This document shows, piece by piece, positions 19,225-39,500 of a DNA stretch of 64,000 bases. The translations under genes and the position numbers were made by a program. The notes under the pieces are model-generated. The model worked only from the letters and a program-made list of their open reading frames with translations. It was not told the origin of the DNA and ran no database searches. Position 1 is the first letter of the stretch. Each line of letters starts with the position of its first letter. This DNA comes from Naegleria gruberi (taxonomy: Eukaryota): assembly GCA_000004985.1 (NCBI GenBank), contig GG738878.1, one strand, 5' to 3'.

Positions 19225-20772
19225 TTAATGATGTTTGGATTTGATTTCTTTAAATCCTAATGTTCTCTTTGTTTGTTCGTAGACTGCAAAGCTTACTGCA
19301 TGAGCTGGAATTCCCTTAATGAGAGAAGGAATGAAACCTTTGAACATGGCAGAGTAACCTTCCTTTTGGACAATTTTAACACAGGCATCAATCATTCCAT
19401 TGTAGACCTTGGCTGTCTTGACTTGTCCATGCAAATCCTGTTGAACTGTTTTGGTTGTCACTTTGAGTTGATGAGCTCCTTGAGTAATCATACGAGTGTT
19501 CAATACATGGAGAGGATAGAAAATGATTTGACTCAATAGTGAGGAGGCACTACCACAAAACATGAGACCAGTCACTGAAGGATTATTCCCAAAGACTGTA
19601 GCACGAATCCATTCATAGCTCATTAAGGAGAATCCTGAAGACCAAATAGTTCCCAAAATGGATGGAGTTAAACCTCTAAAGAATGGTACGACATATCCCT
19701 CATGTTGGGCAATTGTCTTGATGGCATCCATAATTCCTTTATATTCATCAGCAGGTGCAACAGATAGTCTAGTTTTTACGACTTCGAGAGGATAGAGAGC
19801 CGTATGGCAAGTCACACCTGAAGCTGAACCAGCAATGAAAGTTTGCCAATTTGAACCATGTCCACCATTCATATCACTGAGAATCTTTTTAACTCTCTCG
19901 AAAACTGCAAATTTAATGGCCTTCTCTGGAGCAGATTTGAGAATATTTACACCATTACCTCTAAAGAGACCCTTAATTCCACTCTCCATGTACATTTCCT
20001 TGAAACCAACCAAGATTGAAGGTGGTTTCCTTGTTTGAACTTGATATAAAATCTTGAGTCTTTCCAATGGAGCTGTAACAGTTTTACTGATAGCACCTGA
20101 AAGTGCACCAGCTATCAGTGCTTTAGAAGTATTATTGAGATAGGAGAAATTATTAGTATTTTCTCTAATTGACTTGTCCATAATTATCAAATCGACGTCA
20201 TCTCTAATGAGAGAAGAGGCATCTCTCCAATATTCTACAATTGAAGCAATATTTACATCTGGAACAAGTGTCAATAAATTACACCACTCTTCAAATGAGA
20301 TTACTCCATCTCCATTCGCATCAATTCTCTTCATTAATTGTTTAACAACTTGTGGAGCTAGAGGATAATTAGCATTGGTGTCTGTTGATTTTTGAAAAAC
20401 TTGAGAAACACCCCTAGAAACCTCATCCATATCCAAGAAACCATCACCATTCTTATCCAAATCAGAAAAGATGACACGAAGCTCCGATCTCCTCTTTCTA
20501 ACATAATTTGAAAATTCCTCGAAGGTAATTCTTTGATCATGATTAAAATCCATCTGATCAAAGGCTCCATTTACATTGGCAGAAGGGAGTTGTAGTTCTC
20601 TGATCCCTTTTTCTAATTCTTCCTTATCAATAAAGTGATCATTATTTATATCTAGTTTTTTAAATAATAATTCGAGAGAGGCATCATCTGTGTTATTATT
20701 ACTACTAGGTGATGAAGAGGAATTTGATGAAATATTGTTGCTGATGGTTGATGGTTGTTCTGTACTCGTCAT
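19225..20772 (-). CDS. Calcium-binding mitochondrial carrier (EF-hand + 3x mitochondrial carrier repeats; SCaMC/Aralar-like)
   Basis: 515 aa. Three EF-hand loops (DINNDHFIDKEE, DKNGDGFLDMDE, DANGDGVISFEE) are followed by three Mito_carr signature repeats (PLERLKILYQVQ, PLEVVKTRLSV, PLHVLNTRMITQ). Confidence 0.85.
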   Translation of the reverse strand: MTSTEQPSTISNNISSNSSSSPSSNNNTDDASLELLFKKLDINNDHFIDKEELEKGIRELQLPSANVNGAFDQMDFNHDQRITFEEFSNYVRKRRSELRVIFSDLDKNGDGFLDMDEVSRGVSQVFQKSTDTNANYPLAPQVVKQLMKRIDANGDGVISFEEWCNLLTLVPDVNIASIVEYWRDASSLIRDDVDLIIMDKSIRENTNNFSYLNNTSKALIAGALSGAISKTVTAPLERLKILYQVQTRKPPSILVGFKEMYMESGIKGLFRGNGVNILKSAPEKAIKFAVFERVKKILSDMNGGHGSNWQTFIAGSASGVTCHTALYPLEVVKTRLSVAPADEYKGIMDAIKTIAQHEGYVVPFFRGLTPSILGTIWSSGFSLMSYEWIRATVFGNNPSVTGLMFCGSASSLLSQIIFYPLHVLNTRMITQGAHQLKVTTKTVQQDLHGQVKTAKVYNGMIDACVKIVQKEGYSAMFKGFIPSLIKGIPAHAVSFAVYEQTKRTLGFKEIKSKHH

Positions 20773-21128: not shown

Positions 21129-23588
21129 TTATGCTGTATGGCATGTAAGGGTATAATTCTTGAATCCGGTTGCAATTGTACAATAGCTGCCTCTATTGGC
21201 AGTATCCAAATTCCAAAGCTTGACAGTTCTATCATAAGAACCGCTGCATAACCAAGTGTTTTGGTAGGATACAAGACATTTAACAGCATCAGTGTGTCCG
21301 ATAAGTTGTGACTCTCTATTCCAAGTCTTTGGATCATAAATTGAAATTGTTTGATCCTTACTACCACTACACAATAATCCAGCATGATAGCACAAGGAAA
21401 GAACGCCATTTGAGTGAGCCTTAATTTGCTTGATAAATTTAGTACCTGATCTAATATCCCAAATTCTGATATGTCCATCATAAGTACCAGCAACCAAACA
21501 ATTATAAACAGGATCATAAACCAAAGATAAAACAAAACTACTATTGTCCAATGTCATGATATTTTCAAAGTTTGGACCTGACCAAACTTTTACCTTTCTA
21601 TCTCCAGAACCACTGAAAAGAGTATTGTCACTTGCACATAAAACGTTAATCCAATCAGAGTGGGCATGAACACACTTTACACATTCTGCCTTTTCTACAT
21701 CCCATGCACGAATACGATGAGAATTTCCGTCCTTTGAACCACTGACTAAATTACCATAATAACTACATAATGCTCCGACTTTTCCTTCACATCCTGCCAA
21801 AACATGTTCACATTCGCCAGTATCAAAATTCCAAATACGAATAGAGTTATCTCCAGAACCACTGCAAATTCTTCCTTGATGGCTGTGTAATGCAGAGACA
21901 AATCTAGAGTGTCCCTTCAATGAAAGATAATAATCGGTCAATGCATGCTTATCATATCCTCTCTTGGCATGTTGTTGTTGATTGTCTTGGGCTTGAGTGA
22001 ATTCATCCTTTGATAAATCATAAACCTTGATAGAACCAACACCACCACCACTCAACAAGTATACAATTTCTCCTCCGGTCTTGTTATGATTAATTACAGG
22101 AACTGAAGTAGTGCTATTAGAACTAGCACCTCCTCCAGTACTTGTTGGAGTAGTACTAAGAACTGGGGATGAAGGTTTAATAAGAGAGGAAGGAAGTGTA
22201 CCATTACTTGCGTCACTTAGGGTTGGAGTACCACTAGATGCAGAACTGTTACTTGCAACACTGCTAGTTGTACTCTTTGGAGTAATGGCAATTGAACTAT
22301 TATAATATAAATTGTTTGGAGAAGGTGTTGTTGGAGTTGGGAAAATACGACCACTTCCAATATTTGGTGTAATAAATGGAGAGTTAACCAAAACATTATT
22401 AGTGCTATACTTTCTTGAACCAGAATTTCCACTTGTTGGAGTCATCATTATTGGTGAATCCATACCAATAGGATTAATCATTTGAATTCTATTTGGTGAC
22501 ATTTGATAATCATTAATATTTTGTGGGAAAAGTGGATCATTAATGGATGATAAACCATTTGAATTATTTACACCTCTATTTGGTGTTGCCAAAACACTCA
22601 ATCTGTTATTTTGCATGAGATTTGTATTTGGTAAATCATTACCACTTGAACCAAAGCTATTACTTCTATTGTATCTACCTGGAGTTGTTGTAACATTATT
22701 AGGAGTAGGAGATTTTCTTGGAGAAATTAATAATTGTTGGGCAGGATTGGTCATGTATGAATAAATACTATTCTCATAAGGAGATGATTTTTCAGGACCT
22801 GGGAATGTACTACCAATTGGATCATTATTATATCCAGTCCAAGATGAAGTAGTGCAACTAGATGCAGGTGATAGAGGTCTTTCAAGACCTACATTTGTAC
22901 TACCATTCATCATCATTTCAGTTGGACTTGGGCTATTACCAACAGTTGAAGTACTATTAACTTTAGTGTTATGCATCTCTTTTTGTCTGTATTCTTCTAA
23001 TTGATTTTGAAGTCTGGCAATTTCGCATTTGGCAGAATACAAGTCAGAGGATAACCTGGCAATTTTACTTTCCAAGAACATTTTTTCATTCATCCAAGTA
23101 TTATTTGCAATATGCATTGGAGGAGAACTTAATAACATTGGAGATGTAGAGTTTTGTTGTGGAGAAGTCATACCCATTGGATGATGTTGTTGATGATGTA
23201 CAGGTGTGCCTAAGATTTGTTGATTTGATTTACCAGAACTGTTACCCATTGACTTTCTACTTTTATGGATTGGTGATCTAATCATAAACTCTTCACTATC
23301 TAAATGTTGTGGTGGTGATGATTGATCATTTTCATTTTGATCAATCTCTCTGAGTAAATCCATACCGATAGCATTATTACCATTTGATGCTAGAACAGCT
23401 TGATCCATTTCTAACATGGAATTTCTGTCATAATGTTGTTCATGAGAGATTGTTTTACTATCCTCAAGTCTTGACAAGAGTGGTGAAGAGAGATGGTGTT
23501 GATGGTGTGGACTTTGGGAGAGACTATTAACTCCCCAAATATTTGTATTATTTACCTTTGATGGAGAGGAGTTTACAATGTTCATCAT
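21129..23588 (-). CDS. WD40-repeat protein with N-terminal low-complexity region and coiled-coil
   Basis: 819 aa. About 330 aa of S/T/N/P-rich N-terminus is followed by a coiled-coil (LESKIARLSSDLYSAKCEIARLQNQLEEYRQKEM). The C-terminal ~330 aa hold about 7 WD repeats (GHSRFVSALHS..SGSGDNSIRIWNF; SGSKDGNSHRIRAWDV; SGSGDRKVKVWS; AGTYDGHIRIWDI; SGSKDQTISIYD; SGSYDRTVKLWNL). Confidence 0.7.
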   Translation of the reverse strand: MMNIVNSSPSKVNNTNIWGVNSLSQSPHHQHHLSSPLLSRLEDSKTISHEQHYDRNSMLEMDQAVLASNGNNAIGMDLLREIDQNENDQSSPPQHLDSEEFMIRSPIHKSRKSMGNSSGKSNQQILGTPVHHQQHHPMGMTSPQQNSTSPMLLSSPPMHIANNTWMNEKMFLESKIARLSSDLYSAKCEIARLQNQLEEYRQKEMHNTKVNSTSTVGNSPSPTEMMMNGSTNVGLERPLSPASSCTTSSWTGYNNDPIGSTFPGPEKSSPYENSIYSYMTNPAQQLLISPRKSPTPNNVTTTPGRYNRSNSFGSSGNDLPNTNLMQNNRLSVLATPNRGVNNSNGLSSINDPLFPQNINDYQMSPNRIQMINPIGMDSPIMMTPTSGNSGSRKYSTNNVLVNSPFITPNIGSGRIFPTPTTPSPNNLYYNSSIAITPKSTTSSVASNSSASSGTPTLSDASNGTLPSSLIKPSSPVLSTTPTSTGGGASSNSTTSVPVINHNKTGGEIVYLLSGGGVGSIKVYDLSKDEFTQAQDNQQQHAKRGYDKHALTDYYLSLKGHSRFVSALHSHQGRICSGSGDNSIRIWNFDTGECEHVLAGCEGKVGALCSYYGNLVSGSKDGNSHRIRAWDVEKAECVKCVHAHSDWINVLCASDNTLFSGSGDRKVKVWSGPNFENIMTLDNSSFVLSLVYDPVYNCLVAGTYDGHIRIWDIRSGTKFIKQIKAHSNGVLSLCYHAGLLCSGSKDQTISIYDPKTWNRESQLIGHTDAVKCLVSYQNTWLCSGSYDRTVKLWNLDTANRGSYCTIATGFKNYTLTCHTA

Positions 23589-25687
23589 TGATAATACTTA
23601 GTAGTAATATATTCTTTCTTAGTAGATTTTAATAAGTTAAAACAATATTGATATGTATTTACTATCTAAATACTAGTTTGTTGTATATATCTATAAATAA
23701 TATTTTACTATTATTAAATATTTTTAAATACTTTTCAACAAGCTATTAAATTTCCTAAATAAAGAAATAATTTTTTTTTTCTAGTACTAACAAAATACTG
23801 TATTGTAGGATCTTCTCCTTCTTAAAGTATTGTTAGAGTTGGCTAGCAATAGTTACTAACTATTAGTTATTGATGATATCCAAATGTCATATTAGGTATA
23901 TAGTAGCATTATAGAAAATATGATAATGTTTGAGTGTGCACGATATAATTGGAAAGGAGTTTACCACAATAGGTAAGTGGTAAAGAGACAACATTTCCAT
24001 AGTACAATAATAGTGTATTATTATTTATAATATATAATTAATCAATTAATTTAAATAATAGTTATAGTTGTGATAATACAATAGTGGTAATAATAGTTGT
24101 GCACATTGTCCAGTATCGTGTTTGAATGGTCATAGAGTATGCATGTTACTATTGTTAATGTACGGAATATAATCAATTACTTACACTTGGGTTGAAAAAA
24201 TCTTCAACAAGCTGGAATATTAAAGAGGTGGATAATAGAGATTTGGTAATTTCATTGTCATAGTATTGTTGTTGAATGGATGGATCAGATATGGTTTGTG
24301 TTCCATTGAAGAATATTTGTTAGGTTGCCATCCGGAATTTGATCCAAGTGAGTGAGAGTATCAAATGATACAAGTAATGATGATTGGTAGTGAATCAAAG
24401 ACACCAAGATGGCCATACAGGGTCCAAGGTTCAAATAATAGAAGTCATGAGTAAACAGGGAATTAGAAATAATTTAGACAAACACACATTATTAAAAACA
24501 CATACCAATATAAAGAGATCTATTAAAATCACAATATACAATTAACAACTCAAAGACTTCCTATCAGAAGAGGAGCTATTGTTCTCTCTCCAATGAAACC
24601 AAAAATGAAATACAGGAATATAAATTGGATTGAAAATAGACTATTGATGATTCCGTATGACAATGTATCTGAATATATATTCAATGAGTACAACTACTAC
24701 TATTATCTATCGTCAGCACATCATTAAAACACACATTATTTAAAAACATACCTGCTTTGACGGTAGTCGTCGTATTGAATTGTCTTCTGCTACTATCAAA
24801 GGCCGGCTAGGAAATTGAAAGTACCTTGGACAGAGAATCGAGATTGTTTTTTTTTAGATGGGTTGTGTTGCAATCATCACTTATTCGCTCTCCCTTTGAG
24901 AATATTACACCTTGCAGTGGTCAGCAGCTGCTATTGTTCTTCAGCATTGAAGAGGGAGGTCAAACACAATGCAACAATGCTTGAAAATATTCCTTCTTCC
25001 TTCTTTCTGAGAAATCTTCCACCACAGGCCTTTACAGAGAAGTGAAGGAAGAAAAGCTGCAGTTCGATTTTTGCTTTTAAAAGAAAATCAACGAGTCCAA
25101 CCTCATCATGATAATGTGGTGTGAAGTTAGAGTGTATTATAAAGGTGGATTATCATATTTAATGGATGATGCAAATGTAACATGTTGTGATTCATTCACA
25201 TATTGGAAGAATCCTCGAAAGATCCGAAAATTCAAATATTAAACGTTGAAGATTTTCAATAATGCAACATCTCCTTTGCACTAACGAGTAATACAATTAA
25301 TTATTAACAATACTCAGTGGTGTAATATGTTGGTTCAATGAACCGTTTACATATCTCGACATGTTTCATGAATGTTGTAATGAAATGAAGCTTTGAGGGA
25401 CAAACAAAAACGGGTTGAGTCCAATTTGGAAAGCAGGGGGAAGAAAATTACAATGATCAAATATGATTGGTTCTATGAAATTTGAAAAGGTATTGTAATG
25501 TGTTCCAAGAAAATAAGTTCCTTGAAGTTGGTTGTTGTAGAGAAGATCGCTAATTGACTCCCAAACAGGTTACGTTTTTGGCAATCAAGAATACGGTAAA
25601 TTCTCTCTACTCTTAATGGATTCTGATAATAATTTAAAAACAAATTGCACAGAAGATTCTTAACGAAAGATAAATTTACAAAGTGAT

Positions 25688-27236
25688 TTATTTTGTGGAA
25701 ATTTCCTTAGAAACAACCAAACTGCCCATTTCATTCACCAAGGTACGATAGAAAGCATTATAGTCAAGGATGTTACCTTTACCTCTTCTTACTTCAACAA
25801 CTGAGAAACCACCACTTGTTTCTTCAATCTTAATACTAAATGTTATAGCAGCTTGATTTACAGTGGCCATACACTTAATTTCATCGTCACCCTTTGTGGT
25901 TGGTTTGGCCTTCATTTTATCGAGTTTTGAAACGATGGCTGTTTGACATTCTTGTTTCTTTCCTTTAGCCATAAATCTTGTTTGTCTCTTAATTTTAACA
26001 GATGCATCCGAAGACATGAGTGGATTCATAGAACCCATCATTAACATGGAAGCCAAATCGAAAGCATTCAGAGTATTGACCTTAGTTTGAGAATTTTGAG
26101 CTGGTTGTGTTGATGATTGAACTTCAGTAACATCTCCAGTACTTTTAACAGAAGCATCAATTTCCTTTTCAGTCAAACTGATCTTTGATGTAACTCTATC
26201 AAGTTTGAATCCAACCTTGAACCATTTATGTTCCATAATTTGTTCAACAGTAATTCTTTTTTCTGGATCTACAACAAGCATTCTACTAATAAGTTCAGTT
26301 TGGGCACTTGTAAAGTGAGGTGGATAAGAGAATTTTCCTGATTCAATCTTGGCAAACAATCCTTTCATTGTATCATCTTCAAATGGTAAATAACCAGCCA
26401 ACATGACATACAAAATAACACCACATGACCAAACGTCGGCCTTCTTTCCGTCATAACCCTTTTCCTTCAAAACTTCAGGAGCTATTAAGGTGGTTCAAAT
26501 ATATTACATTTTCGAAATTATTACTACTAGCAAAATTTAAAAAACATACCAACATAATTTGGTGTACCACAAGTTGTCATCAACATCTTTTGTTGTCCTG
26601 ATCCATCATTACCGGAGAGTGCAGATAAACCAAAGTCACTAATCTTTAAAACATCTTCACCATCCAACAATAAATTTTCTGGTTTCAAATCTCTGTGAGC
26701 AATTCCTTGAGAATGGCAATATTCAATACCTGAAATCAATTGTTGGAAGTATTTTCTTGCTGTTGTTTCATCGAATCTCTTGGCCTCAACTATTGATCAT
26801 ATTATGTTGTTTTATATAGTTTAATAATATTATCGTCATCATCATTAAATATTATTATTAATATGATTGGATATCCGTGTTGTGTGATCAAAAAGCAATA
26901 CAAATAATTATTAATATTGTATTGAATACAAAAAAGATACGTACCAATTCTGTCGAACAATTCACCACCAGTAATCAATTCCAATACAATATAAATATGT
27001 TTAGAGCTTTGAAGAACTTCTCTCAATTGTACAACGTGTTTGTGTTTTAAAATTTTCATGATGGCAATTTCTCTCTTGAGCTGGGCTTCCATGTTTTCTT
27101 GTTTGACCATCTTTCTATCGATAATCTTGATAGCCCAGTGAGAGTTATCAGTTGTATCTACAGCTAATTTAACCTTTGAAAAAGTACCTCTACCGAGGGT
27201 TTTTCCCAATTGATACTTTTCGATTTTCTTAGGCAT
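25688..27236 (-). CDS. CBL-interacting protein kinase (CIPK)-like Ser/Thr kinase with NAF/FISL motif, three exons
   Basis: Exons are ~27236..26946, ~26790..26550 and ~26481..25688 (about 442 aa). The introns are gtacgt..caatag (~155 nt) and gtatgt..cttaatag (~68 nt). Kinase subdomains: [33 protein letters not shown]. The activation loop is plant-CIPK-like: [36 protein letters not shown]-type motif follows the kinase ([16 protein letters not shown]), then a CIPK PPI-like C-terminus ([23 protein letters not shown]...[29 protein letters not shown]). Confidence 0.8.
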
Positions 27237-27664
27237 ATTTAATATCTACGGCTGATGAATTTTTTTGAGAGTAAAAATCAATACTGTGTAGCAGCTGATG
27301 ATTTTGAGTATTTTTTTTACTGTTGATTGGAGAGTTTTATTGTTGTTATTGTGTCTCTGTAAGTGAGTGAATTGTTGTTACCTTTCATTATCTAATACTC
27401 TCTGAAGCAATCAACAATGCAATGCAGGAAGAAGAGATATAATATCTTCTTGTGTTGGTTTCCAATGGAAAAGAGATTCGACTCAGTATTACAAGGACTT
27501 TGTAACAAATGTTTTAATATTCGTGCAGTCTAATTGGTTCATTCTATTTGACACCTGTTGCGAAACTTGACAAGTTGGAAGGGAAAAGTGTCCAAATCAA
27601 TTCTTTCACTGCACACAACCAAATTTGAGGGTGGTAAAAATTAATGTCATTGAATCGTAAAGGA

Positions 27665-28508
27665 TTAAAGGTACCTCAATACAGAGTGATTTTTCTGATA
27701 GGCTTGCAATATTTCATCAACTGTTAGGAGATTATCATTATTGGAATCAGCCATTTCCATCAGCTTGGTTGCATTTTCCTCAATTATTTGTTTGATATTA
27801 GGATCATTTACATCGTTTCCTCTCGCTTTAAATGCATGAGCTCTTTTGTAAATCCAATTATATTTGAATAAATAGCTTCCAAATTTAAACACTTACGTGC
27901 ATTCCATTATATTTTCCTTAGTCACCTTACCAATATTGTCTTTGTCATAAATTTGGAAGAAGAACCGTATTAATTGCTCAGGATCACTTTCTTTGGCAGT
28001 AGGTCTCTACTATTTGATCTAGTTCTTATTACTACTTATAATAACTTACAGTAATAGACATGAAAATCTATTATTTGTTATTAGTTTCCAAAATGTTTGA
28101 ATCACTTACAAGGTATTCCTCAAAATTGACAAATCCATCCTTGTTCGTATCCATGGCTCTAAACAAATCATCAACAATAATTTCTGGAGATGATATTCCA
28201 GGTTCTGATTTGAGAAATTCACAAAAATTATTCTTTTGAGCTTTCCCTGTTGGATACCACTTGTACCACTCTGCAAATGTCACAAATCCAAATCATAATT
28301 AATTATTGATTTCACAATATTCACATCAATTAATTAAAAATAGCATTTCCTATCACTAATACCTACGTGTGTACAATCTCTGAATTTCATTTATTGAAAA
28401 TGCGTTATTAACTTGTTTTTGATATTTTAACATTTCAATTTCGTCGTCAGCATCCGAAGAAGCTTGACTGTTACTTGAAATGTGATTGCTTTGAAGTATT
28501 TGACCCAT
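27665..28508 (-). CDS. N-myristoylated EF-hand calcium sensor, NCS/recoverin/CBL-like, four exons
   Basis: Exons are ~28508..28358, ~28270..28110, ~28006..27897 and ~27842..27665 (about 199 aa), all with gtaagt/gtaggt donors. It begins MGQILQS (an MGxxxS myristoylation consensus). Motifs track NCS-1/recoverin: EWYKWYPTGKAQ (compare QWYKGF...CPSG), the EF-hand loop DTNKDGFVNFEEY, FFQIYDKDNIGKVTKENIME and DSNNDNLLTVDEI. Confidence 0.65.
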
Positions 28509-28611: not shown

Positions 28612-29121
28612 TTACTTTTGTTTTGATTGGTCAAACATTCGACGTGCTGACATATAGGAATCGTACATTGACTTGACTTGTGATTCTGAAGACCCATTTT
28701 GCTGTGAAACCCTTAAATCAATATCGGAAACAGTTTCGTGTGACTCGAAAAATTCTGTCAATACCCTTAAATTATCAACAACAAAATTGTAATCCCTGTA
28801 CACCACCTTTTTTTGATCTCGCTCAATAACATGAGCAAAATTTTCCACATCAAATACAGGAAGGTAATCACCAATGTGGCCACAATCAAAACCAAATCTA
28901 CCATCCTTTCCATAGGTCAAACCACCATGCACATGGCATTGAATGTTTTCGTAACATTTATTGAACATTGGGTGATGTTTTGGCAATTGAACATATCCTG
29001 TCCAACAAAGAAATGCATTTCTTTTCAAATAACAATCGTAACCACCTAACACAACGTGAAGTTCTCCATCCTTGCATGGATGTTCTTCGTTATCCCTTTC
29101 GAACAGCTCCTTATTATCCAT
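28612..29121 (-). CDS. Cys/His-rich hypothetical protein (possible metal-binding)
   Basis: 169 aa, ATG-initiated. The pattern is HPCKDGELHVVLGGYDCYL...CWTGYVQLPKHHPMFNKCYENIQCHVHGGLTYGKDGRFGFDCGHIGDY, with about 8 Cys and 8 His in 90 aa. No family recognised. It lies about 100 bp upstream of the EF-hand sensor gene. Confidence 0.4.
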   Translation of the reverse strand: MDNKELFERDNEEHPCKDGELHVVLGGYDCYLKRNAFLCWTGYVQLPKHHPMFNKCYENIQCHVHGGLTYGKDGRFGFDCGHIGDYLPVFDVENFAHVIERDQKKVVYRDYNFVVDNLRVLTEFFESHETVSDIDLRVSQQNGSSESQVKSMYDSYMSARRMFDQSKQK

Positions 29122-29912: not shown

Positions 29913-32307
29913 ATGAATCAACAACAACAACAACATTTTGTACATGCTGCTACTTCCTCCTTTTCTAATTATCCATCCCAACAACAACAACAATCACTAA
30001 TGCGAACTCCATCATATCAATACCAAAATATTCCATCATCAGATTTAAATCAAATACCAATTCAACATCAACACTACACTACTCAGAGTAATAACACTAA
30101 TAATATATATTCTAACAATAGTAATAACATAATACAACCAACAACAAATAATGTTTTTGATTATAACACTCCACCACTAAAATCACATTTACATTCTACA
30201 GGGGGATCCAATAATTCTTCATATTTTCAAAATTCTCAATACAATAATTTTGGTCAACCACAACAATCTATGCACAATTACCATCATTATGGAGGAACAA
30301 CTAGTTATAAATCACCAACACACAATAATTCATCAGGGTTTAGTGTTCATCCCTCTCAAGACTTGTCATTCAAACAACAAGAAACATTTTCCAAACACCT
30401 AAATAATAATCAATCTCCAAATGTTGTACACAATTACTATCCTACTGCAACTGTTACACCTCAAACTTCTAAAATTTCTCTTGATAATTCTCCTAAACAA
30501 CATAGTCAACCAACAAAGGCCTCCAACAGATTCAGTGACAACTTCCTATCAATCACCTTCAACCGCCTTTACTCCAACAGAACTATCGAAAACCAAATCA
30601 CCTTCCAAAACTCCAACAAACTCCACTGAATCCAATGAAGACTCTGCAAGTGAGGAAGAATCTACTAATTCACCAAATGCAAGAAGAGCAAAGAAATCCA
30701 CACGTGCTTGTGAAGCCTGTAGAAGACATCACCGTAAATGTGACGGAGGTAGTCCTTGTCAAACTTGTAGTGGGAAGGGGATTAGTTGTGTATATACCGA
30801 AAGAAAAAAGAGAGGTCCAAAGAATGAGGCAACCAAACTTTTAAAGAAAGAAATTGAGGAACTCAAAGAAAAGCTTATGGTGAGTGAAAGAATGAAATGT
30901 GAATGGGAACAAAAATGTAAAGAATTGGCCAAAATGGCAGGTATTTCGATAACACTGAACGATCAGAATATGCCTATGTTTAGTAATTTACAAAACGATC
31001 AAAATAGTAATACTATGGCCTTCTCCAATACTCAGCAAACAACCATGCAGAGTAATGATCAAAGTTATCCTATTATATTCGATAGCAGTGGAGCTGTTGA
31101 TAATTCAAATCCTCTTTCCACAATTCCAGTCTTCTCAATTTCACTCTCTAATGAAGAGGAAAATAATAAGAAACGAAAGAGCGTAGAGAATAATCTTGAA
31201 AATCTGAAAAAGCAAAAATTTGACACCACTAACAGTAGTACAGAAATTGAACATTTGGATTTGTCACAGAAAAATACAGATCCCATTCCAACGGATGGTC
31301 AGAGGTTTGCCCTCTCTACAATGGTTACTCGTTTCATTAATATTTGGGATAAATTTGTCCATCCATTCCATTCCTTACTCCCTCCAAAATGGCAATCAGC
31401 AATGCCAGATCTTCTCTATGATATCATTAGAAATGATGGTGTCAACTCTGAAAATACCTTCTTCATGTACAGTTTATTATGTAATTCTGCTCGTTCTCTA
31501 GGAGATATCATGCTAAGTAGAGATTTGCACCATAAAGCAATGACATTGTACCCTCTTCATATGAACAACCCAGATCCTCGTGTAGGGTTTGCCTTGGTGC
31601 TTCTCTCCTATTACTCAATGTCTGTTGGTAGTTTGAGAAAGGCAATTGCTTATTGTAAGGATGCTCTTCGTATCTCTGAGGTGTTAGACAAACCACAACT
31701 CAATCTTCAAATGAACGCCTTCCTCTCTATTGCATCCATTTCAGATGACTATGAAGAAAGAAAAGTGAACTTTAGGCGACTGGGACAAACTAAACAAATT
31801 TGTGATGTAATCATGTCTGTCACGGGTGAAGTTCAAAATGAAATTACACACGGTGGTAATACCAATTATAAGGAATTGATTGCACAAATGGCTGACTTGC
31901 TTCGTCTCAAGAATATGTCCTCTTCTAATGTTACCTTAATGCATGAAATTGCCATTTATGGTATTTTAATATTGTGTCTTCATAAGGCAGGATACAGAGA
32001 TCTTGCCCTTAATTACGGAAGAAAATTATTGGAAATTTCAAAAGACACTAACTTTAAACATTGTTGTATTGGTACAAGCTCAAGTGCCATCGCTCAAGCA
32101 GCCACAATGTTCCTAGACTTTGAAGGATATCCAGAATTTTATGAGTGTATGTCCATTATGGATGAGTTATCAGTGAGGTATGAACTTGCTGGACTCATGA
32201 AAAAGGATGTTGAGGAAAGATTTGTACTCATGTCGAATCATCTTTCCTCAGGAGGTAGCAGCAGTGGAAGCTCTCATACCAATAGCCCAAACATGCAATT
32301 CTTGTAA
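29913..32307 (+). CDS. Zn(II)2Cys6 binuclear-cluster transcription factor with Q/N-rich N-terminus
   Basis: Two overlapping track ORFs (29913..30629 and 30421..32307) in different frames both look coding, so a small intron or a frameshift near 30500-30560 joins them. The zinc cluster is ACEACRRHHRKCDGGSPCQTCSGKGISCVY (CX2CX6CX5CX2CX6C), followed by a basic linker and coiled-coil (EIEELKEKLMVSERMKCEWEQKCKE). The C-terminal ~400 aa are a regulatory-type domain. Confidence 0.65.
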
Positions 32308-33088: not shown

Positions 33089-33575
33089 GAACAACAATTC
33101 TTACACTTTATTCGAAACTAATCATATATAAACAAAATACATTCCTTGCACAAAACATTCACAATACATATTACTATCGTTTACTTGCATGTTCATCACC
33201 CTTTCGAATAGATAACAACAACTATTTCTAATAACCCAGGAATGGAACATTCAACTCGTTCCCTCTCTTTTCTCAAGAGTTGACTGAAAACTCAAAAAAA
33301 AAAGCCTTTTTCGTCTGATTTTCCGACATCCATCACAACAACACAGCGAATTTATTAATAATCATCATCAACACAATATTGAAATTCCATAGCCATTATC
33401 CATCATCATCATCATACAATTAAAACAATCATTAACATCATCAATTAAATTGTTTTTATTGTTGTTGTATTATATTGGAAAAATAGAAGAATTTTAAACT
33501 TCATCATCATCACCATCATTATCTTTATAAAATTCATTCTAAATTTTGAAAAGATTGAAGAATCAATTGGATCCA

Positions 33576-36500
33576 ATGGCAGCTCTTGGACTCATCTATT
33601 TTGTATGTACACTCTTTATTGGAGTGGCTGCTTTTGTTTGGAGAAAATTCTTTTCTTCGAATGCTAATAATACGACAACAACGACTACAACTTCTTCATC
33701 ATCGACATCGACATTGGGTGATGAGTTGGTTCAGAAAGATGTTTCTTCTAAAGTTTCACCTAGAGTATTGGAAACTGGAAGAAAGGAAGAGGAAATATTG
33801 GATGAAACATTGAAATCTGTATTGGAGGAATCTGGTATATTTATTGAAACTAATGATGTGAAGGAGGAACCAATTAGTGTGGAAGAATCATCAGACGAAA
33901 CCTTGTCGGAAGTAAAGACAGACGAAATTCAAGAAGAATTGGAAGAAGTTTCTACACCACAACAAGAAGAAGAATATCAAGAAACATTTACTGAAGAAAA
34001 ACAAATTTCCATACCAGAAGAGTTATCGGAAACTTGTCAAGAGGAAATTCTGTCCCAAACCAAAGATATTACCGACATGAAAGAGGAAGAACATTTGACT
34101 GATATCACAGAAAGTCAGCAAAAGGACATCACAGAAGAAGAAATAGTGGAAGATTCTACTACAGCAGTGGAGGACAATGCTAAGGAGAGCATTGTTGTTC
34201 CAACAATTGTTACAGAAGTAAAAGAGGAGAAATCAGAACCTAGTGAATTGTACATAACTTGCCTGATTGTATTGCAGGCAATTATTCGAGGATACTTACA
34301 AAGACATTCAATGGGACAAGTGAAAGAAACTCTCTCAATGATAACACAAGGACTGTTAAACTCTTTCAATATCAGAAGTGAACTTGAAGAAGAAAAGAAC
34401 AGTTTGACAACAATGCAATCAATTGTGAGAAATTCCAACTCTGTTAGGAAATTTATGGATGAAAAACAAAAAGTACAACTCATTCAAGCTTTTATTCAAT
34501 CCAAGTTGGAATTTGTGAAATCTTCGGAACAAAAAGACAAGGTAATAGAATTGCAATCCATACTCAAATCAAAGCTCTTAATGAAGAATCTAAAGAGTTT
34601 ATTAGAAAGTGTATCTACATTACAGAGCTTTTTGCATTCTAAAATAGTAGAGGAGAATTATGTGAGTACTGTATCAACAATCCAATCTCTGCAAGCAAGA
34701 GTTCGATCAAACTATGAATCCAAACAAGTGGAAGAAGGTTTAAAGAGCTTGGAGATTTTGCAATCCAGATGCTTGAAATCTATAGTAGAAAAGGATTTAA
34801 GGAATCAATTAGAAAAAATCACCATCCTACAATCAAAGGCACGCACATTTATTATTGGTAAAAAGTTAAGAAATGAAATTGAGAATTGTAAATTAATTCA
34901 AAGTGCTTGCACAGCATACTTGAAGCAAAAACAAATTCTCCATTTAGAAAACTTATCATCAATGATTCATTCATTTGCTGCTAGTAAGCAAGATAGACTC
35001 AACTATAGAAATAATGTGGATAATGTCAAAACTTTGGAATCCGTTATGAGAGGATACTCCCAAAGAAACAGTATGACAAATGTATTGCACGCCATTACAG
35101 ACCTGCAATCTCATTTAATTGGACAAAATTCAAGAAAGTCGTTGCATAAGAGTATTGACAGAGCCAACACACTATTGGCTCTTTCTAAGGCAAAATGCTA
35201 CAAGAAATCATTAATGGTTGACAAGTCACGACTCGTAATATTACAAGCACTTGCTAGATCGAGCATTACCAATAGAAAACTGAATGCCAAACAAGCAAGC
35301 GAAGAGGACTTGGCATTATTAGTCCAATCTCTACATAATGGTTCAAAGTTGAGATCAGAACATTCCGAGAAAGTGAGGAGTGTAAACCTCATTAATAGTT
35401 TACTCTCAGCAACTAAATCAAGAAATACTTTCAACAAAGAAAAGCTCTCAATTCAAACCATTCAAGCAGCTCTCAACAGCCACAAAGTCCAACATTTACA
35501 CTCGAACGACATGTCCAACATTGGCCTTATTCAATCTGTGATAATTGCAAAAAAGGCAAATGATGTCAAAACTACAGCAACCAACAATATAATTCTCCTA
35601 CAATCATTAATAAGAGGAAGGCAAATTCAAAAAGAAAAGTCTCACAACCTTGATCATGCACATGTTTTGACAGCTTTCAGCAAAGGAAGATTGATGTTAC
35701 ACCTTTTCGAGTCACAAGTAGCTACCACCACCAAAATCCAAAGTTTTACTAGACAATACACATCCCGAAAACAAATGATGAAAGAGATTGATAATGTTTG
35801 TCTCTTGGAATCTTTGTGCACTGGGTTTGTGGAAAGAAGAAATCTTTCAACAGAAATTTCTAATATTTTGCAATGTCAAAGTTTGATTAGAGGATTTATG
35901 ACAAGAAAAGTCAGAGTTTCGGATGATCAAATTGATCAATTAGAGAAGAAAACACATTTCGTCTCCATGATACAATCATCTATGGATGGTAGAAATATTC
36001 GAAAGATTAGAGAACAAGCAGCTGCTCATGTGAAACTTTTCCAAGCTGTTTCTAGGGCCTTTTTAACACTAGACAGCTATCAACAACAACAAATCATCTC
36101 CTTGCACTTGCAATCTATTTGTAGGAGTGTTATGGAAAGGAAAGCACTTTCAACTGACTTGAATAATCTTCTTGGGTTGCAAGCTCTGTGCAGGAGTAGA
36201 TTAATTACTAACAGGTCCAAAGTTGACAAAAATAGAGTTCAAATAGTGCAATCAAATATTAGAAGATATTTGGCACACAAACACTTGGATCAAGAAAAAT
36301 TGAGAGTAGCCAATTTACAAAGTTTGATTCGTGGATTTGCTAACAAACAATTTGTCAAGGATCAAATTGCTAGAGTGACAGTTATGCAATCCATGACTAG
36401 GGCATACTCTTACAGAAAACAAATGAAAAATTCACAATCTAGAATCAATATATTACAAGCTAAGATAAGAGGATATTTAGAAAAAACAAGAATTGAAGGA

Positions 36501-39500
36501 CAAAACTCTCTTTCTAACAATCTAGGATCTGTCATGAAAGGATTTGCCCAAAGAGTCAAGCTATTCAAGGCAATAACCAGCACTATACCAACTATTCAAT
36601 CCTCTGTAAGACAATTTGCATTGCGTAAAGGAATTAGTGAATCATTGGGTGCTATCATAAATATTCAATCACTGTGCAGAAAACACTTGCAAAGTGAAAG
36701 CAAGCCCCTCTCTTTGAATAGAATATTATCCCTTCAAGCACTAATTAGAACATACTCTAAGGGAAAACACACAAATCAACAGTTGGGCAAGATTCCATAT
36801 ATTCAAGCTCTTTTCAGAGGAAAGCAGGCAAGAAAAACCATTGTCAAATCCTCAGATGTTTCACCTATTCAAGCAGTTGCTAGATCACTCAAACAGAGAC
36901 GTGTTATGGAACAATCCGAACAAGGTATTACCAAAATTAGTGCAGCTCTTCTTGGTTATTCCAAGAGAAGAGAACTATTCCAAAGTATGAAGAACATAAC
37001 TCACTGTCAAACTATTCTTAAAACAGTGCTTTCATCCAATGATTTGAGAAGCCAAACGAAACAGTCTCTTGATTTGATATCTAATTTGCAACAAAAGCTT
37101 AAAACTAGATTGGAATTGGAACGTTTTGAAAAGAAAAAGAAAAGTAGCCTACTTTTACAATCTTTGGCTAGAGGCTGCACTATACGAAAGTTTATTAGAA
37201 ACTCTGTCAAACCTTCAGTTGAACTTATTGATTCACTCTGTATTGGTCACATAGAAAGAGAAAACCACAGAGACAAAGTTGAAAAAGCAACATTATTACA
37301 AAGCATCAGCAGAAGAGCCCAAGCATGCAACCAAATTTCTGAACAAAGACAAAAGTTATTACTTCTTCAAGCAGCTTTCAAATCATGGAAAACTCGAGAT
37401 ACTTTCAAGAAGGAACTAGAGGATAAAATTATTCACGAGCTTGAAGATAAAATTAAGAGAGTTGTTGTCATTCAAGGCTTTGTAAGAGGTTACCTCTTCA
37501 GAAGAGATAACTTACTCTACACAAAGAGGAGACAGGAATCCCCAACTCAACAAATTAGTGAACTACCTTCCACTGCTGAAATTTTACGTCAACTCTATCA
37601 AAATGATGAGTTTGGAGACAATGAAGATAGTGAGGAAGAAGTACAACTGGAATATCCAGAAGAAGCTGATGACATTCCAGAGCCAGTTATAATTGAGGAG
37701 CCACATGTTGAAGTAACTGTTAATAGTTTCCTGGATACTCCATCTTCTCCTGAGGAGCTACCAAGTATTATTCCAATTCCTCTTCACAGAAGGACTTCCA
37801 ATGCACCACTTCCTGCTATCAATATTACAGCATCCACCCCAACACCAACAACAACCGTAACTCCTTCTGTATTCTCTAAAGAACCAGTTGGTATTACCTC
37901 CTCAACTAAAAATACTCGTCTTCCAAGTCAAAAACCTCCAACCAGAAGACAACTCATTCAAAATATTATTGAGGAATGTAAAAGAACAAAGAATCCAGTC
38001 TTGAATCTGTCTGGTTATGATTTGGAAACTTTACCATACTCTGCCATTGATTGCAAACATGTCACAGAACTCATTTTGTCTCAAAATAATCTTGTCACTT
38101 TACCTTCATGGTTTGTTGATACATTTAGTGATTTGAAAGTGTTAGACTTGAGTGGAAATCAACTTTATGAGCTTCCAATTGATTTGGCAAGGCTTTCATT
38201 GACAAGTATTAATTTGAGTAATAACAAGTTGGAATTTTTACCTCAAGCATTGAACGAAATGAACACATTGACCAAGATTGATATTAGCGAAAACGTGCTT
38301 CTCAGTTTACCAAGTACTATTAGTCATTTGGTTAATGTTGAAGAGTTGGATATTTCCAACAATTACCTAATGACATTGCCTGATGATATCAAAAAATTGA
38401 AAAAGCTCAAGAACTTCCAATATTATAATAATGAATATCTTCAATCTGAAATTTCTAAAATTGCAGAGGTCATTAGCGCAGTATCTGGAGAAAAAGCAAA
38501 GACCATTATTCAAAAATTGAGAAATGAAGACAGCATGGGATATAAGGAAATTGGCTTATCCAACAAACATAAGGAAAACAACTTATTCTTGGATCCTTAT
38601 GATCTGACAGATATGTCAGAGGCAACTGAAATGTATAATGGTGAAGATGGTGAATCAGATTATAGTATGACAGATGATGTTGTACTGTCTCCAAGATTAA
38701 TGAGAAATAATTCCTCTGCCACTATGGTAGAAACAGACACCACTTCAACTCCAATGACACCAATATCTGGAAGAAATAATGACTATCTGGATACACCTCC
38801 TACTCATACACTTTCTGTAACAACAGAAGAATATGGAACACCATGTATCACCCCACCAGCAATTTCAGATTCAGATTCTGAATCTGATGTCACCCCACCA
38901 AAATACAATCCACCTGTCACTATTCCTCAAATCAAATTAGAAGTTATTGAAAATTTGGATTCACCTTCATCATCTCCTGCTGAACATTCTCCAATTTCTA
39001 TGCATCCTCCAAAAGTAATCATGACTGAAGAGGATAAGAAGGTCAACTTTGGACAACTCAACAAGGAAGGAAATGAAAAATCCTTGACAGATGTTGTTCA
39101 CATGGAGCATCCACTATTTGCTACTCCAAAGATTAGACCAGTTAGTGCCTCCTACAAGAAGGTAGCACTTGAAGAGTCTGAAGAAGAAAGAAAAGAAAGA
39201 GAAGCAAAAGAAAACAAAAAATCAAAGGAAAGAATTAACATGGTTCTTGAAATTCTTGAAAGTGAAAGAAAATATGTCAAATATCTGGATGTTTTGTGGG
39301 ATTTATTCTATGAACCAATTGTAAATAACTACTTCCCAGCTGATAAAAATAAGAATCCAGAAGAAAGTGAACGATTGGTACCTAAAATGATTGCCAAGAA
39401 TTTCTTCCCTAATGACTTGCTTACCATCAAGACTTTCAACAAGAACTTCCTTGTCAAACTTGAAGACAGATTTAAGATTTACAAAGGTGATCCAACAAAG

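Follow-up and report, generated by a model that had tools for sequence, protein, structure and literature searches.

Sensor and kinase genes adjoin in Naegleria gruberi

The kinase NgrCIPK1 of Naegleria gruberi and the EF-hand protein encoded directly upstream are very likely the products of two separate tandem genes, that is a kinase of the CIPK type and an independent NCS-like sensor, whose adjacency is incidental. A first-pass annotation of this DNA had described the locus as a plant-type CBL-CIPK module, in which the physical neighbourhood of kinase and sensor was taken to suggest a co-regulated pair. The window, that is the whole stretch of 64,000 nucleotides that was analysed, carries both genes on the minus strand in tandem orientation, with the sensor gene upstream. 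The features relevant here are the following:

25688..27236, minus strand: NgrCIPK1 gene (XP_002675451 / EFC42707, JGI 80321); spliced model, exact protein match, Pfam Pkinase
26006..26077, minus strand: NAF/FISL motif region of NgrCIPK1, ~residues 313-336; alignment with the NAF regions of CIPK23 and CIPK24/SOS2
25718..25996, minus strand: C-terminal regulatory domain of NgrCIPK1 (PPI-like, KA1-fold), ~residues 340-432, starting with KRQTRF; PDB matches and model
27237..27664, minus strand: intergenic spacer of 428 bp, reaching from the stop codon of the sensor to the ATG of the kinase; computed coordinates
27665..28508, minus strand: NCS-like EF-hand gene NAEGRDRAFT_69428 (XP_002675452), 202 aa; translation of the five exons is identical to the annotated protein
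28612-29121: Cys/His-rich ORF, 169 aa, 103 bp further upstream of the sensor gene

This layout largely bears out the annotated one. The kinase gene was confirmed at 25688-27236 with three exons on the minus strand, and the EF-hand gene, which had been placed about 430 bp upstream on the same strand, begins with its MGQILQS start at 28508 and is separated from the kinase gene by the 428-bp spacer. The Cys/His-rich gene, annotated about 100 bp further upstream, is likewise present. Searches with this ORF yielded neither a Pfam match nor a significant PDB match (best E-value 0.17), and its homologs are three weak metagenomic ones. An Rfam scan of the whole window returned zero matches.

The upstream gene encodes an NCS-like sensor

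The sensor gene comprises five exons (28508-28367, 28270-28110, 28067-28050, 28006-27897 and 27842-27665). It had been annotated with four exons and 199 residues, a model that misses the third exon, a micro-exon of 18 nt, which is flanked by AG and GTAAGT and encodes IFMSIT, residues that are kept in homologs. From the junctions proposed at the time, 27897/27842 was retained, whereas ~28358/28270 had to be corrected to 28367/28270 and 28110/28006 is interrupted by the micro-exon. The expected EF-hand assignment was obtained with Pfam (EF-hand_7, 9.2e-17). Reading of the individual loops revealed a canonical EF2 (DTNKDGFVNFEE) and a near-canonical EF4 with Asn at position 6 (DSNNDNLLTVDE), while EF3 (DKDNIGKVTKEN), with Ile and Asn at positions 5 and 12, respectively, is probably impaired. 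EF2 and EF4 alone of the four EF-hands look Ca2+-competent, and EF1 and EF3 look degenerate. The usual N-myristoylation pattern is MGxxxS/T, from which the N-terminus MGQILQS departs by Gln at position 6, followed by Ser at position 7. Gly2 is conserved in 7/7 full-length members of the sensor family, and the protein is possibly myristoylated.

Judged by its sequence, the sensor is an NCS-like protein and not a CBL. Its best PDB matches are NCS-1 (2l2e; 1.2e-15, residues 35-192), followed by hippocalcin and recoverin, and no CBL appears among the best 60 PDB matches. Pairwise scores amount to 59-60 bits for NCS-1/recoverin as compared to 20-43 bits for CBLs, 33-34 bits for calcineurin B and 34 bits for calmodulin. 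An HMM built from the heterolobosean sensor family scores NCS-1 with 124.6 bits and recoverin with 100.1 bits, whereas CBLs reach 33-70 bits. The published CBL of this organism, NgrCBL1, is a protein distinct from the sensor and scores 89-151 bits against the CBLs of other species in the set.

The EF-hands of the sensor are spaced 25/28/36, as compared to 25/24/36 in NCS-1 and 20/25/32 in NgrCBL1, and thereby fall outside the CBL spacing criterion of ~19-24 / 25 / 32-35. As a further criterion, CBLs are described to possess an extended EF1 loop of at least 14 residues with Ser or Leu at X (Beckmann et al. 2016, Sci Rep 6:31645). The EF1 region of the sensor (KWYPTGKAQKNNF) aligns gap-free with that of NCS-1 (KDCPSGHLNKSEF), showing neither an insertion nor a Ser at X, and therefore the CBL-type extension is absent. 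At the position of CPSG in EF1 of NCS-1, which corresponds to the CPxG of NCS proteins, the sensor has YPTG. The FPSF motif of CBLs is also lacking. Thus, the assignment of the protein to the NCS/CNB/CBL superfamily stands, but its CBL character does not, as it fails with respect to EF1 extension, spacing and relative similarity. What it has in common with CBLs including NgrCBL1 is membership in this superfamily, four EF-hands and an N-terminal Met-Gly.

With the NCS family (NCS-1/frequenin, recoverin, hippocalcin), which provides its best sequence matches, the sensor shares a degenerate EF1 with Pro-x-Gly, the EF1-EF2 and EF3-EF4 spacings of 25 and 36, respectively, and the Met-Gly start. It differs from this family by four extra residues between EF2 and EF3 (28 vs 24), an insertion that is present in 5/8 aligned heterolobosean family members, and further by its degenerate EF3, YPTG in place of CPxG, Gln at residue 6 and a long Ser-rich N-terminus. 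Identity to NCS-1 is low, with ~60 bits in all. We assign NAEGRDRAFT_69428 to a subfamily of NCS-like sensors (recoverin/frequenin-type) that is heterolobosean, and it is probably an independent Ca2+ sensor. A search of the window for NgrCBL1 was negative and returned one weak EF-hand match, in a mitochondrial-carrier gene at 20260-20643. The annotated plant-type CBL-CIPK module is therefore not found at this locus, as the sensor is NCS-like and NgrCBL1 is encoded outside the window.

The adjacency of sensor and kinase genes is not conserved

The neighbourhood of the sensor and CIPK1 genes is not conserved in Willaertia magna. In this species, the sensor homolog ABK040_010800 is the positional ortholog at a syntenic locus, where the downstream WD40 gene is 75-80% identical (tblastx) and no kinase is present. 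The CIPK1 ortholog ABK040_004692 (76% identity) resides on a different contig, a separation deduced from contig sizes, locus tags and the lack of a kinase at the syntenic sensor locus. Two other loci encoding CIPK homologs (61-64%) lack an EF-hand gene in the surrounding 10 kb. In N. fowleri, the homolog search found no CIPK1 ortholog, the sole match being the CIPK2 ortholog. The sensor family itself is spread over Heterolobosea, with members in Acrasis, strain BB2 and Willaertia; a word-indexed search returned the sensor alone, and its relatives were obtained by an exhaustive HMMER scan.

These data bear on the alternative that the neighbours indeed form a co-regulated Ca2+ sensor-kinase pair, in which the NCS-like protein would bind the NAF segment of NgrCIPK1 as a Naegleria-specific second sensor. 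Such a pair is unlikely, since the sensor came out negative for each CBL-specific feature that was examined, although NCS, CNB and CBL proteins hold a target helix within a hydrophobic groove, as seen in solved complexes, and the conserved Gly2 of the sensor family fits membrane targeting as in CBLs. The tandem arrangement on the same strand at a distance of 428 bp would also suit a pair, but this adjacency is missing in Willaertia despite an otherwise syntenic locus, as well as at the two other CIPK-homolog loci, and the missing N. fowleri CIPK1 ortholog and the wide distribution of the sensor family, whose positional ortholog in Willaertia does without an adjoining kinase, likewise argue against it. 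Also in favour of a pair, NCS, CNB and CBL proteins were reported to form one EF-hand clade, and the published table lists two CIPKs for N. gruberi but yielded only a single CBL entry (Beckmann et al. 2016), so that an extra sensor partner is conceivable. This numerical difference between the table entries would also be explained if a rearrangement in the N. gruberi lineage had set the NCS sensor upstream of CIPK1 and both now cooperated as an NCS-CIPK pair, a scenario that we consider, if anything, slightly less probable still.

Rather, the adjacency of the two separate genes is most likely incidental, and the 428-bp arrangement would most likely have arisen by rearrangement in a compact genome and not reflect a conserved functional pairing. 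As a side note, a gene of the NCS/CNB/CBL superfamily located directly upstream of a CIPK gene on the same strand is judged an uncommon coincidence, which was counted against this explanation.

NgrCIPK1 is a kinase of the CIPK type

The kinase gene consists of exons 27236-26945, 26789-26550 and 26481-25688 (stop included), separated by introns of 155 and 68 nt that both follow the GT..AG rule. The annotated junction 26550/26481 was reproduced, and the one given as ~26946/26790 is now placed at 26945/26789. The annotated length of 442 aa is correct as a number of codons, but includes the stop; the protein has 441 residues. Pfam detected Pkinase at residues 8-265 (1.5e-78), in agreement with the annotation, and both the DFGLSAL activation loop and the NAF/FISL motif noted at first pass are present. 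In addition to the NAF tripeptide (316-A-F318), the protein carries KRQTRF, which is identical in CIPK24/SOS2. Across 51 homologs, F318 does not vary and A317 hardly does. The AlphaFold2 model predicts a helix at residues 317-329 and a confident beta/alpha domain at 346-432. By homology, the NAF/FISL region is a putative autoinhibitory, CBL-binding segment.

A PDB search aligned NgrCIPK1 over its full length with Arabidopsis CIPK23 and CIPK24. CIPK23 was the best match (1.7e-105, 356 bits, aligned 4-432), and CIPK24 reached 333 bits, while Snf1 and AMPK matched in the kinase domain only (245-262 bits), leaving the CIPKs ~95 bits above Snf1. Identity in the kinase domain is 48-52% to CIPK23/CIPK24 vs 27-30% to AMPK/MARK1. 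Compared with the Arabidopsis proteins (PDB 4czt, 4d28, 2ehb), NgrCIPK1 is collinear throughout and has in common with them the Ser, Thr and Tyr of the activation loop, the NAF tripeptide, KRQTRF and the C-terminal domain; its junction is shorter and its NAF region has diverged enough to escape the plant-centred Pfam model. The close homologs come from heteroloboseans and other discobans and include proteins named CBL-interacting kinases.

Indeed, Pfam NAF (PF03822), which had been expected alongside Pkinase, gave no match with full-length NgrCIPK1 at E<=1, and a 65-aa fragment scored 13 bits (E-value 0.12) and thus remained below the cut-off of 25. Among the 51 protist homologs, 15 showed weak NAF matches, the best at 0.0019. 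The model appears to be tuned to plant sequences, and it was dropped as a discriminator, being below threshold in NgrCIPK1 and nearly all protist CIPK homologs. For this reason, homology of the C-terminus alone to the SOS2 regulatory domain was used instead. With the C-terminal 176 residues as query, PDB matches were limited to CIPK24 (2ehb_D, 7.5e-7; 4d28, 4.2e-6) and CIPK23 (7.7e-4), and AMPK or MARK C-terminal domains gave no match. Two of the outcomes that the first-pass annotation had named as speaking against its module were observed in part, namely a Pfam NAF result that is not significant and an EF-hand protein that is NCS-like and without CBL affinity.

The sub-threshold NAF result could also be taken to mean that the kinase is AMPK/MARK/SnRK1-like with a KA1 domain and has its 'NAF' tripeptide by chance. 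Weak Pfam KA1 matches in 21/51 homologs would agree with this, as would a Foldseek search of the PDB with the AlphaFold2 model, in which full-length AMPK-alpha and KA1-autoinhibited MARK1 ranked above CIPK entries and aligned over 437-483 columns, reaching through the C-terminal domain. The clean contrast between NAF and KA1 drawn at first pass can therefore not be upheld. The PPI domain of CIPKs is reported to have a KA1-like fold itself, and similarity in fold to AMPK/MARK is expected for this reason. Moreover, the CIPK chains matched by Foldseek are short (277-302 resolved residues, with entry titles naming the kinase domain), and the ranking, which does not separate CIPK from AMPK/MARK, was dropped as a test. 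Given the identities in the kinase domain, the full-length alignment with CIPK23/CIPK24, the C-terminus that matches these two alone, and the shared KRQTRF, an AMPK/MARK-like kinase is very improbable. The published Bayesian tree, which sets newly identified CIPKs, among which NgrCIPK1 is listed, close to plant CIPKs, also argues against it (Beckmann et al. 2016, Fig. 2). On sequence grounds, NgrCIPK1 is thus a genuine CIPK-type (SnRK3) kinase, and in this respect the first-pass annotation as a plant-type CIPK was right.

Known CIPK systems and a proposed explanation

The kinase is already known. It was published as NgrCIPK1 (JGI 80321) in Supplementary Table 1 of Beckmann et al. 2016, with which the sequence XP_002675451 agrees as far as the table text shows; it is the same gene with no difference, and that publication contains no discussion of the genomic neighbour. 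There, CBL-CIPK pairs are reported in excavates, the module occurring in Bikonta and, in general, not in Amoebozoa or Opisthokonta, and NAF-dependent binding and activation by Ca2+-bound CBLs were demonstrated for Trichomonas and Arabidopsis proteins. The attribution of the locus to a social amoeba or dictyostelid was wrong: kinase, five-exon sensor model and Cys/His-rich ORF are identical to the N. gruberi NEG-M proteins EFC42707, EFC42708 and EFC42709 (exact look-up), which are all encoded on one 395,411-bp scaffold, and N. gruberi is an amoeboflagellate of the Heterolobosea, an excavate. That the locus could represent an amoebozoan CBL-CIPK module, against the reported general absence, has practically no chance of being true, as the low G+C content (34.6%) and short introns resemble social-amoeba genomes only superficially, and both genes have their nearest relatives in Heterolobosea (Willaertia, Acrasis, Percolomonas, N. 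fowleri).

For the two independent genes, we propose the following explanation. NgrCIPK1 combines a kinase domain, a junction and a NAF/FISL motif with a PPI-like domain of KA1 fold at the C-terminus. By homology to plant CIPKs and the Trichomonas CBL-CIPK pair, the NAF segment may keep the kinase autoinhibited until a Ca2+-loaded CBL binds to it and frees the enzyme, and phosphorylation of the activation loop may raise activation further. The expected partner would be NgrCBL1, encoded elsewhere in the genome, and the NCS-like protein would act apart from it.

A CBL-CIPK module in a dictyostelid, if true, would have been notable, as it would have contradicted the published distribution. What is left over is minor, namely a corrected structure for the NCS-like gene, the placement of this gene in an NCS-like subfamily of Heterolobosea, and an adjacency that is not conserved and could motivate one interaction test at most. 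Should the NCS-like sensor and NgrCIPK1 nonetheless turn out to cooperate, this would represent a CIPK that is decoded by a non-CBL sensor.

Locus and gene structures

Three genes lie in tandem on the minus strand of the window (34.6% G+C), encoding a kinase, an EF-hand sensor and a Cys/His-rich ORF:

Tandem genes and their exons
27236-26945, 26789-26550, 26481-25688, minus strand: three exons of the kinase gene NgrCIPK1, 441 aa
28508 (start, MGQILQS) to 27665 (end of stop codon), minus strand: EF-hand sensor gene, five exons, 202 aa
28067-28050, minus strand: 18-nt micro-exon of the sensor gene, encoding IFMSIT, with AG and GTAAGT at its borders
28612-29121, minus strand: Cys/His-rich ORF, 169 aa, further upstream than the sensor

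By exact sequence match, the kinase corresponds to EFC42707.1/XP_002675451.1, annotated as 'serine/threonine protein kinase [Naegleria gruberi strain NEG-M]', the sensor to EFC42708.1/XP_002675452.1 (NAEGRDRAFT_69428) and the Cys/His-rich ORF to EFC42709.1 (NAEGRDRAFT_80322), all on a single 395,411-bp scaffold. The closest relatives of NgrCIPK1 are found in Willaertia magna (76% identity), Percolomonas, N. fowleri, Diplonema (annotated as 'CBL-interacting protein kinase 23'), Bodo and Andalucia, that is in Discoba and not in Amoebozoa. Since the three proteins are N. gruberi NEG-M entries and the kinase relatives are discoban, the social amoeba named as host in the first-pass annotation is wrong.

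NgrCIPK1 is interrupted by introns of 155 and 68 nt, both GT..AG, and the spliced protein contains the motifs quoted earlier, i.e. the DFGLSAL... activation loop, the NAF tripeptide (residues 316-318, with A317-F318) and KRQTRF. The sensor gene, predicted ~430 bp upstream on the same strand, is located there, with 428 bp between its stop codon and the kinase ATG, and the Cys/His-rich gene anticipated ~100 bp beyond it was found after a gap of 103 bp. As to the predicted sensor gene model, the MGQILQS start and the EF-hand gene as such held. A four-exon model yields 196 aa, six residues (IFMSIT) short of the database protein, and the five-exon model is identical to the annotated protein throughout. 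Because of this match, and because the micro-exon residues are kept in sensor homologs, the proposed four-exon, 199-aa model was slightly wrong. The sensor introns measure 96, 42, 43 and 54 nt; the micro-exon, flanked by those of 42 and 43 nt, illustrates the small size that both exons and introns may have in Naegleria.

Assignment of the kinase

Judged by its sequence, NgrCIPK1 is a CIPK kinase. Its top PDB matches are Arabidopsis CIPK23 (1.7e-105, residues 4-432) and CIPK24/SOS2, whereas Snf1, AMPK, MARK and related entries aligned with the kinase domain alone and scored ~95 bits below the CIPK matches. When the C-terminal 176 residues were compared separately with the whole PDB, four matches were obtained, every one a CIPK: the SOS2 regulatory domain 2ehb_D (7.5e-7), CIPK24 4d28 (4.2e-6) and two CIPK23 sequences (7.7e-4), with NAF and KRQTRF both aligned. 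These matches confirm the earlier reading as a CIPK-type kinase. The significant Pfam NAF match that had been expected did not appear: full-length NgrCIPK1 gave no NAF match at E<=1, and a 65-aa fragment reached 13 bits (E 0.12), below the cut-off of 25. Among 51 protist homologs, weak matches to NAF were seen in 15 and to KA1 in 21. In the alignment of these homologs, the tripeptide consensus is DAF (xDAFDL) instead of NAF in most discoban sequences, the conserved positions being solely Ala (nearly invariant) and Phe (invariant). This DAF consensus may be part of the reason why the Pfam model misses them.

An AlphaFold2 model of NgrCIPK1 (mean pLDDT 82) contains the kinase domain; its NAF segment forms a helix (317-329), and residues 346-432 fold into a beta/alpha domain predicted with confidence. 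With this model as query, the leading Foldseek matches were full-length AMPK-alpha and KA1-autoinhibited MARK1 (27-30% identity); CIPK23/CIPK24 chains, which are short (277-302 resolved residues, titled kinase domain), came next at 48-52% identity. This order, set against the identities, indicates that sequence and not fold discriminates between CIPK and AMPK/MARK. The distinction drawn earlier between 'NAF+PPI' and 'KA1' architectures is not clean, because full-length AMPK-alpha and MARK1 chains align through the C-terminal domain of the model and because of the weak KA1 matches among the homologs.

The decisive point on the kinase is provided by the literature, as NgrCIPK1 is already published: JGI protein 80321 is 'NgrCIPK1' in Supplementary Table 1 of Beckmann et al. 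2016 (Sci Rep 6:31645, PMC4990929), and the table sequence equals the present one over the portion compared. This paper and its predecessors reported CBL and CIPK sequences from N. gruberi and Trichomonas vaginalis, and described both families as generally absent in Opisthokonta and Amoebozoa.

Assignment of the sensor

The neighbouring sensor had been proposed as a CBL-like partner; its PDB ranking, reference scores, EF-hand spacing and EF1 region identify it as NCS-like, not CBL. Pfam returned generic EF-hands and nothing more specific. In the PDB, the NCS family leads (NCS-1, 2l2e, 1.2e-15), followed by hippocalcin, recoverin, KChIPs and GCAPs; the best calcineurin B reaches ~7e-9, and no CBL is among the best 60 matches. 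With the reference sequences used by Beckmann et al. (CBLs, NCS, calcineurin B, calmodulin), the sensor reached 60.0 bits for recoverin and 59.4 bits for NCS-1, as compared to 20-43 bits for CBLs, 33-34 bits for calcineurin B and 34 bits for calmodulin. As a control, the N. gruberi protein NgrCBL1 scored 89-151 bits with other species' CBLs. NgrCBL1, which starts with MGNQPGKNKQ... in Beckmann et al. (PMC4990929), is distinct from the sensor and is not encoded within the window (tblastn).

When 1.84 billion representatives were scanned exhaustively with HMMER and the matches looked up by name, a small heterolobosean sensor family emerged, including Willaertia ABK040_010800 (43% identity) and ABK040_008221, Acrasis kona AKO1_008209, Heterolobosea sp. 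BB2 and several metagenomic members. Its profile scored 124.6 bits with NCS-1, 100.1 with recoverin, 33-70 with CBLs and 52-56 with calcineurin B. The EF-hands of the sensor are spaced 25/28/36, those of NCS-1 25/24/36 and those of NgrCBL1 20/25/32. Genuine CBLs are recognized, in Beckmann et al. (PMC4990929), by an EF1 loop extended to 14 residues with Ser at position X. The extended loop is absent from the sensor, whose EF1 region KWYPTGKAQKNNF aligns without gaps to the CPxG-type EF1 of NCS-1. Read from the sequence, the EF2 loop is canonical and EF4 nearly so, while EF1 and EF3 are degenerate.

Conservation of the adjacency

The Willaertia sensor-homolog locus (contig JBEGDK010000059.1) carries, in this order, the sensor homolog, an unknown gene of 300 aa, a 291-aa EF-hand gene and a WD40 gene. 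The latter is the ortholog of the WD40 gene at 21129-23588 in the window (75-80% identity, tblastx) in like order and orientation, so that both loci are positionally orthologous. No kinase was found in this Willaertia locus; the CIPK1 ortholog ABK040_004692 (76% identity) resides on a 374,697-bp contig and the sensor homolog on a different one of 275,040 bp, their locus tags being ~6,000 apart. Likewise, in two JGI-sample loci with CIPK homologs of 61-64% identity, neither annotation nor tblastn showed an EF-hand gene within 10 kb. The sole N. fowleri match is an ortholog of NgrCIPK2, another N. gruberi protein (81.5% identity). The proposed sensor-kinase module is thus not a conserved linkage, and the adjacency appears to stem from a rearrangement specific to this lineage, whose genome is gene-dense. 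That the sensor nevertheless acts directly on NgrCIPK1 is very improbable, the proximity of the two genes being the one argument in favour and the non-conserved pairing speaking against it.

Between the WD40 and kinase genes, the ~2.1 kb at 23589-25687 contain no ORF >=90 aa and no Rfam match. The 300-aa and 291-aa genes occupy the Willaertia counterpart, neither with tblastx similarity in this interval, which could contain an intron-rich or fast-evolving gene.

Other features of the window

Further ORFs
19225-20772, minus strand: single-exon ORF, 515 aa, EF-hand and mitochondrial carrier (EF-hand_7 1.3e-24; Mito_carr 1.3e-66)
30421-32307, plus strand: Zn(2)-Cys(6) binuclear cluster ORF, 628 aa (Pfam Zn_clus 6.8e-10)
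33546-40604, plus strand: giant ORF, 2352 aa, with many IQ calmodulin-binding motifs, leucine-rich repeats and a RhoGEF domain

Besides the sensor gene, at least one further EF-hand gene is present in the window (19225-20772), in which N-terminal EF-hands are fused to three mitochondrial-carrier repeats. In architecture, its predicted product is similar to Ca2+-regulated mitochondrial carriers of the SCaMC/APC type, and its EF-hands explain a weak NgrCBL1 tblastn match in the window. Four Ca2+-related genes (EF-hand carrier, CIPK1, NCS-like gene and IQ/LRR/RhoGEF ORF) occur in ~21 kb. The Zn(2)-Cys(6) cluster DNA-binding domain is mostly fungal, and its presence in a heterolobosean genome may merit a look. 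The Cys/His-rich ORF is nearly an orphan, with no Pfam match, no significant PDB match (best E 0.17) and three weak homologs of 31-38% identity over partial length in metagenomic or read-archive assemblies. A 3349-bp ENA metagenome contig (ERZ929261, PRJEB11402) contains a 260-aa ORF of NgrCIPK1 exon 3 at 100% identity, which indicates N. gruberi or a near-identical strain in that sample.

Proposed mechanism and meaning

What both proteins are and which domains they contain is established, and so is the absence of a conserved linkage. By homology with plant CIPKs and Trichomonas CBL-CIPK (Beckmann et al. 2016, PMC4990929), NgrCIPK1 would be autoinhibited via its NAF-containing regulatory region, and binding of a Ca2+-bound CBL to the NAF motif would activate it. 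Homology suggests NgrCBL1, encoded elsewhere in the genome, as the expected partner. The NCS-like protein is probably an independent Ca2+ sensor, which may be acylated given its conserved Gly2. Taken together, the first-pass observation was largely real, its dictyostelid premise aside, and NgrCIPK1 is not new: it has been published, and it belongs to a known family whose occurrence in this organism was already established.
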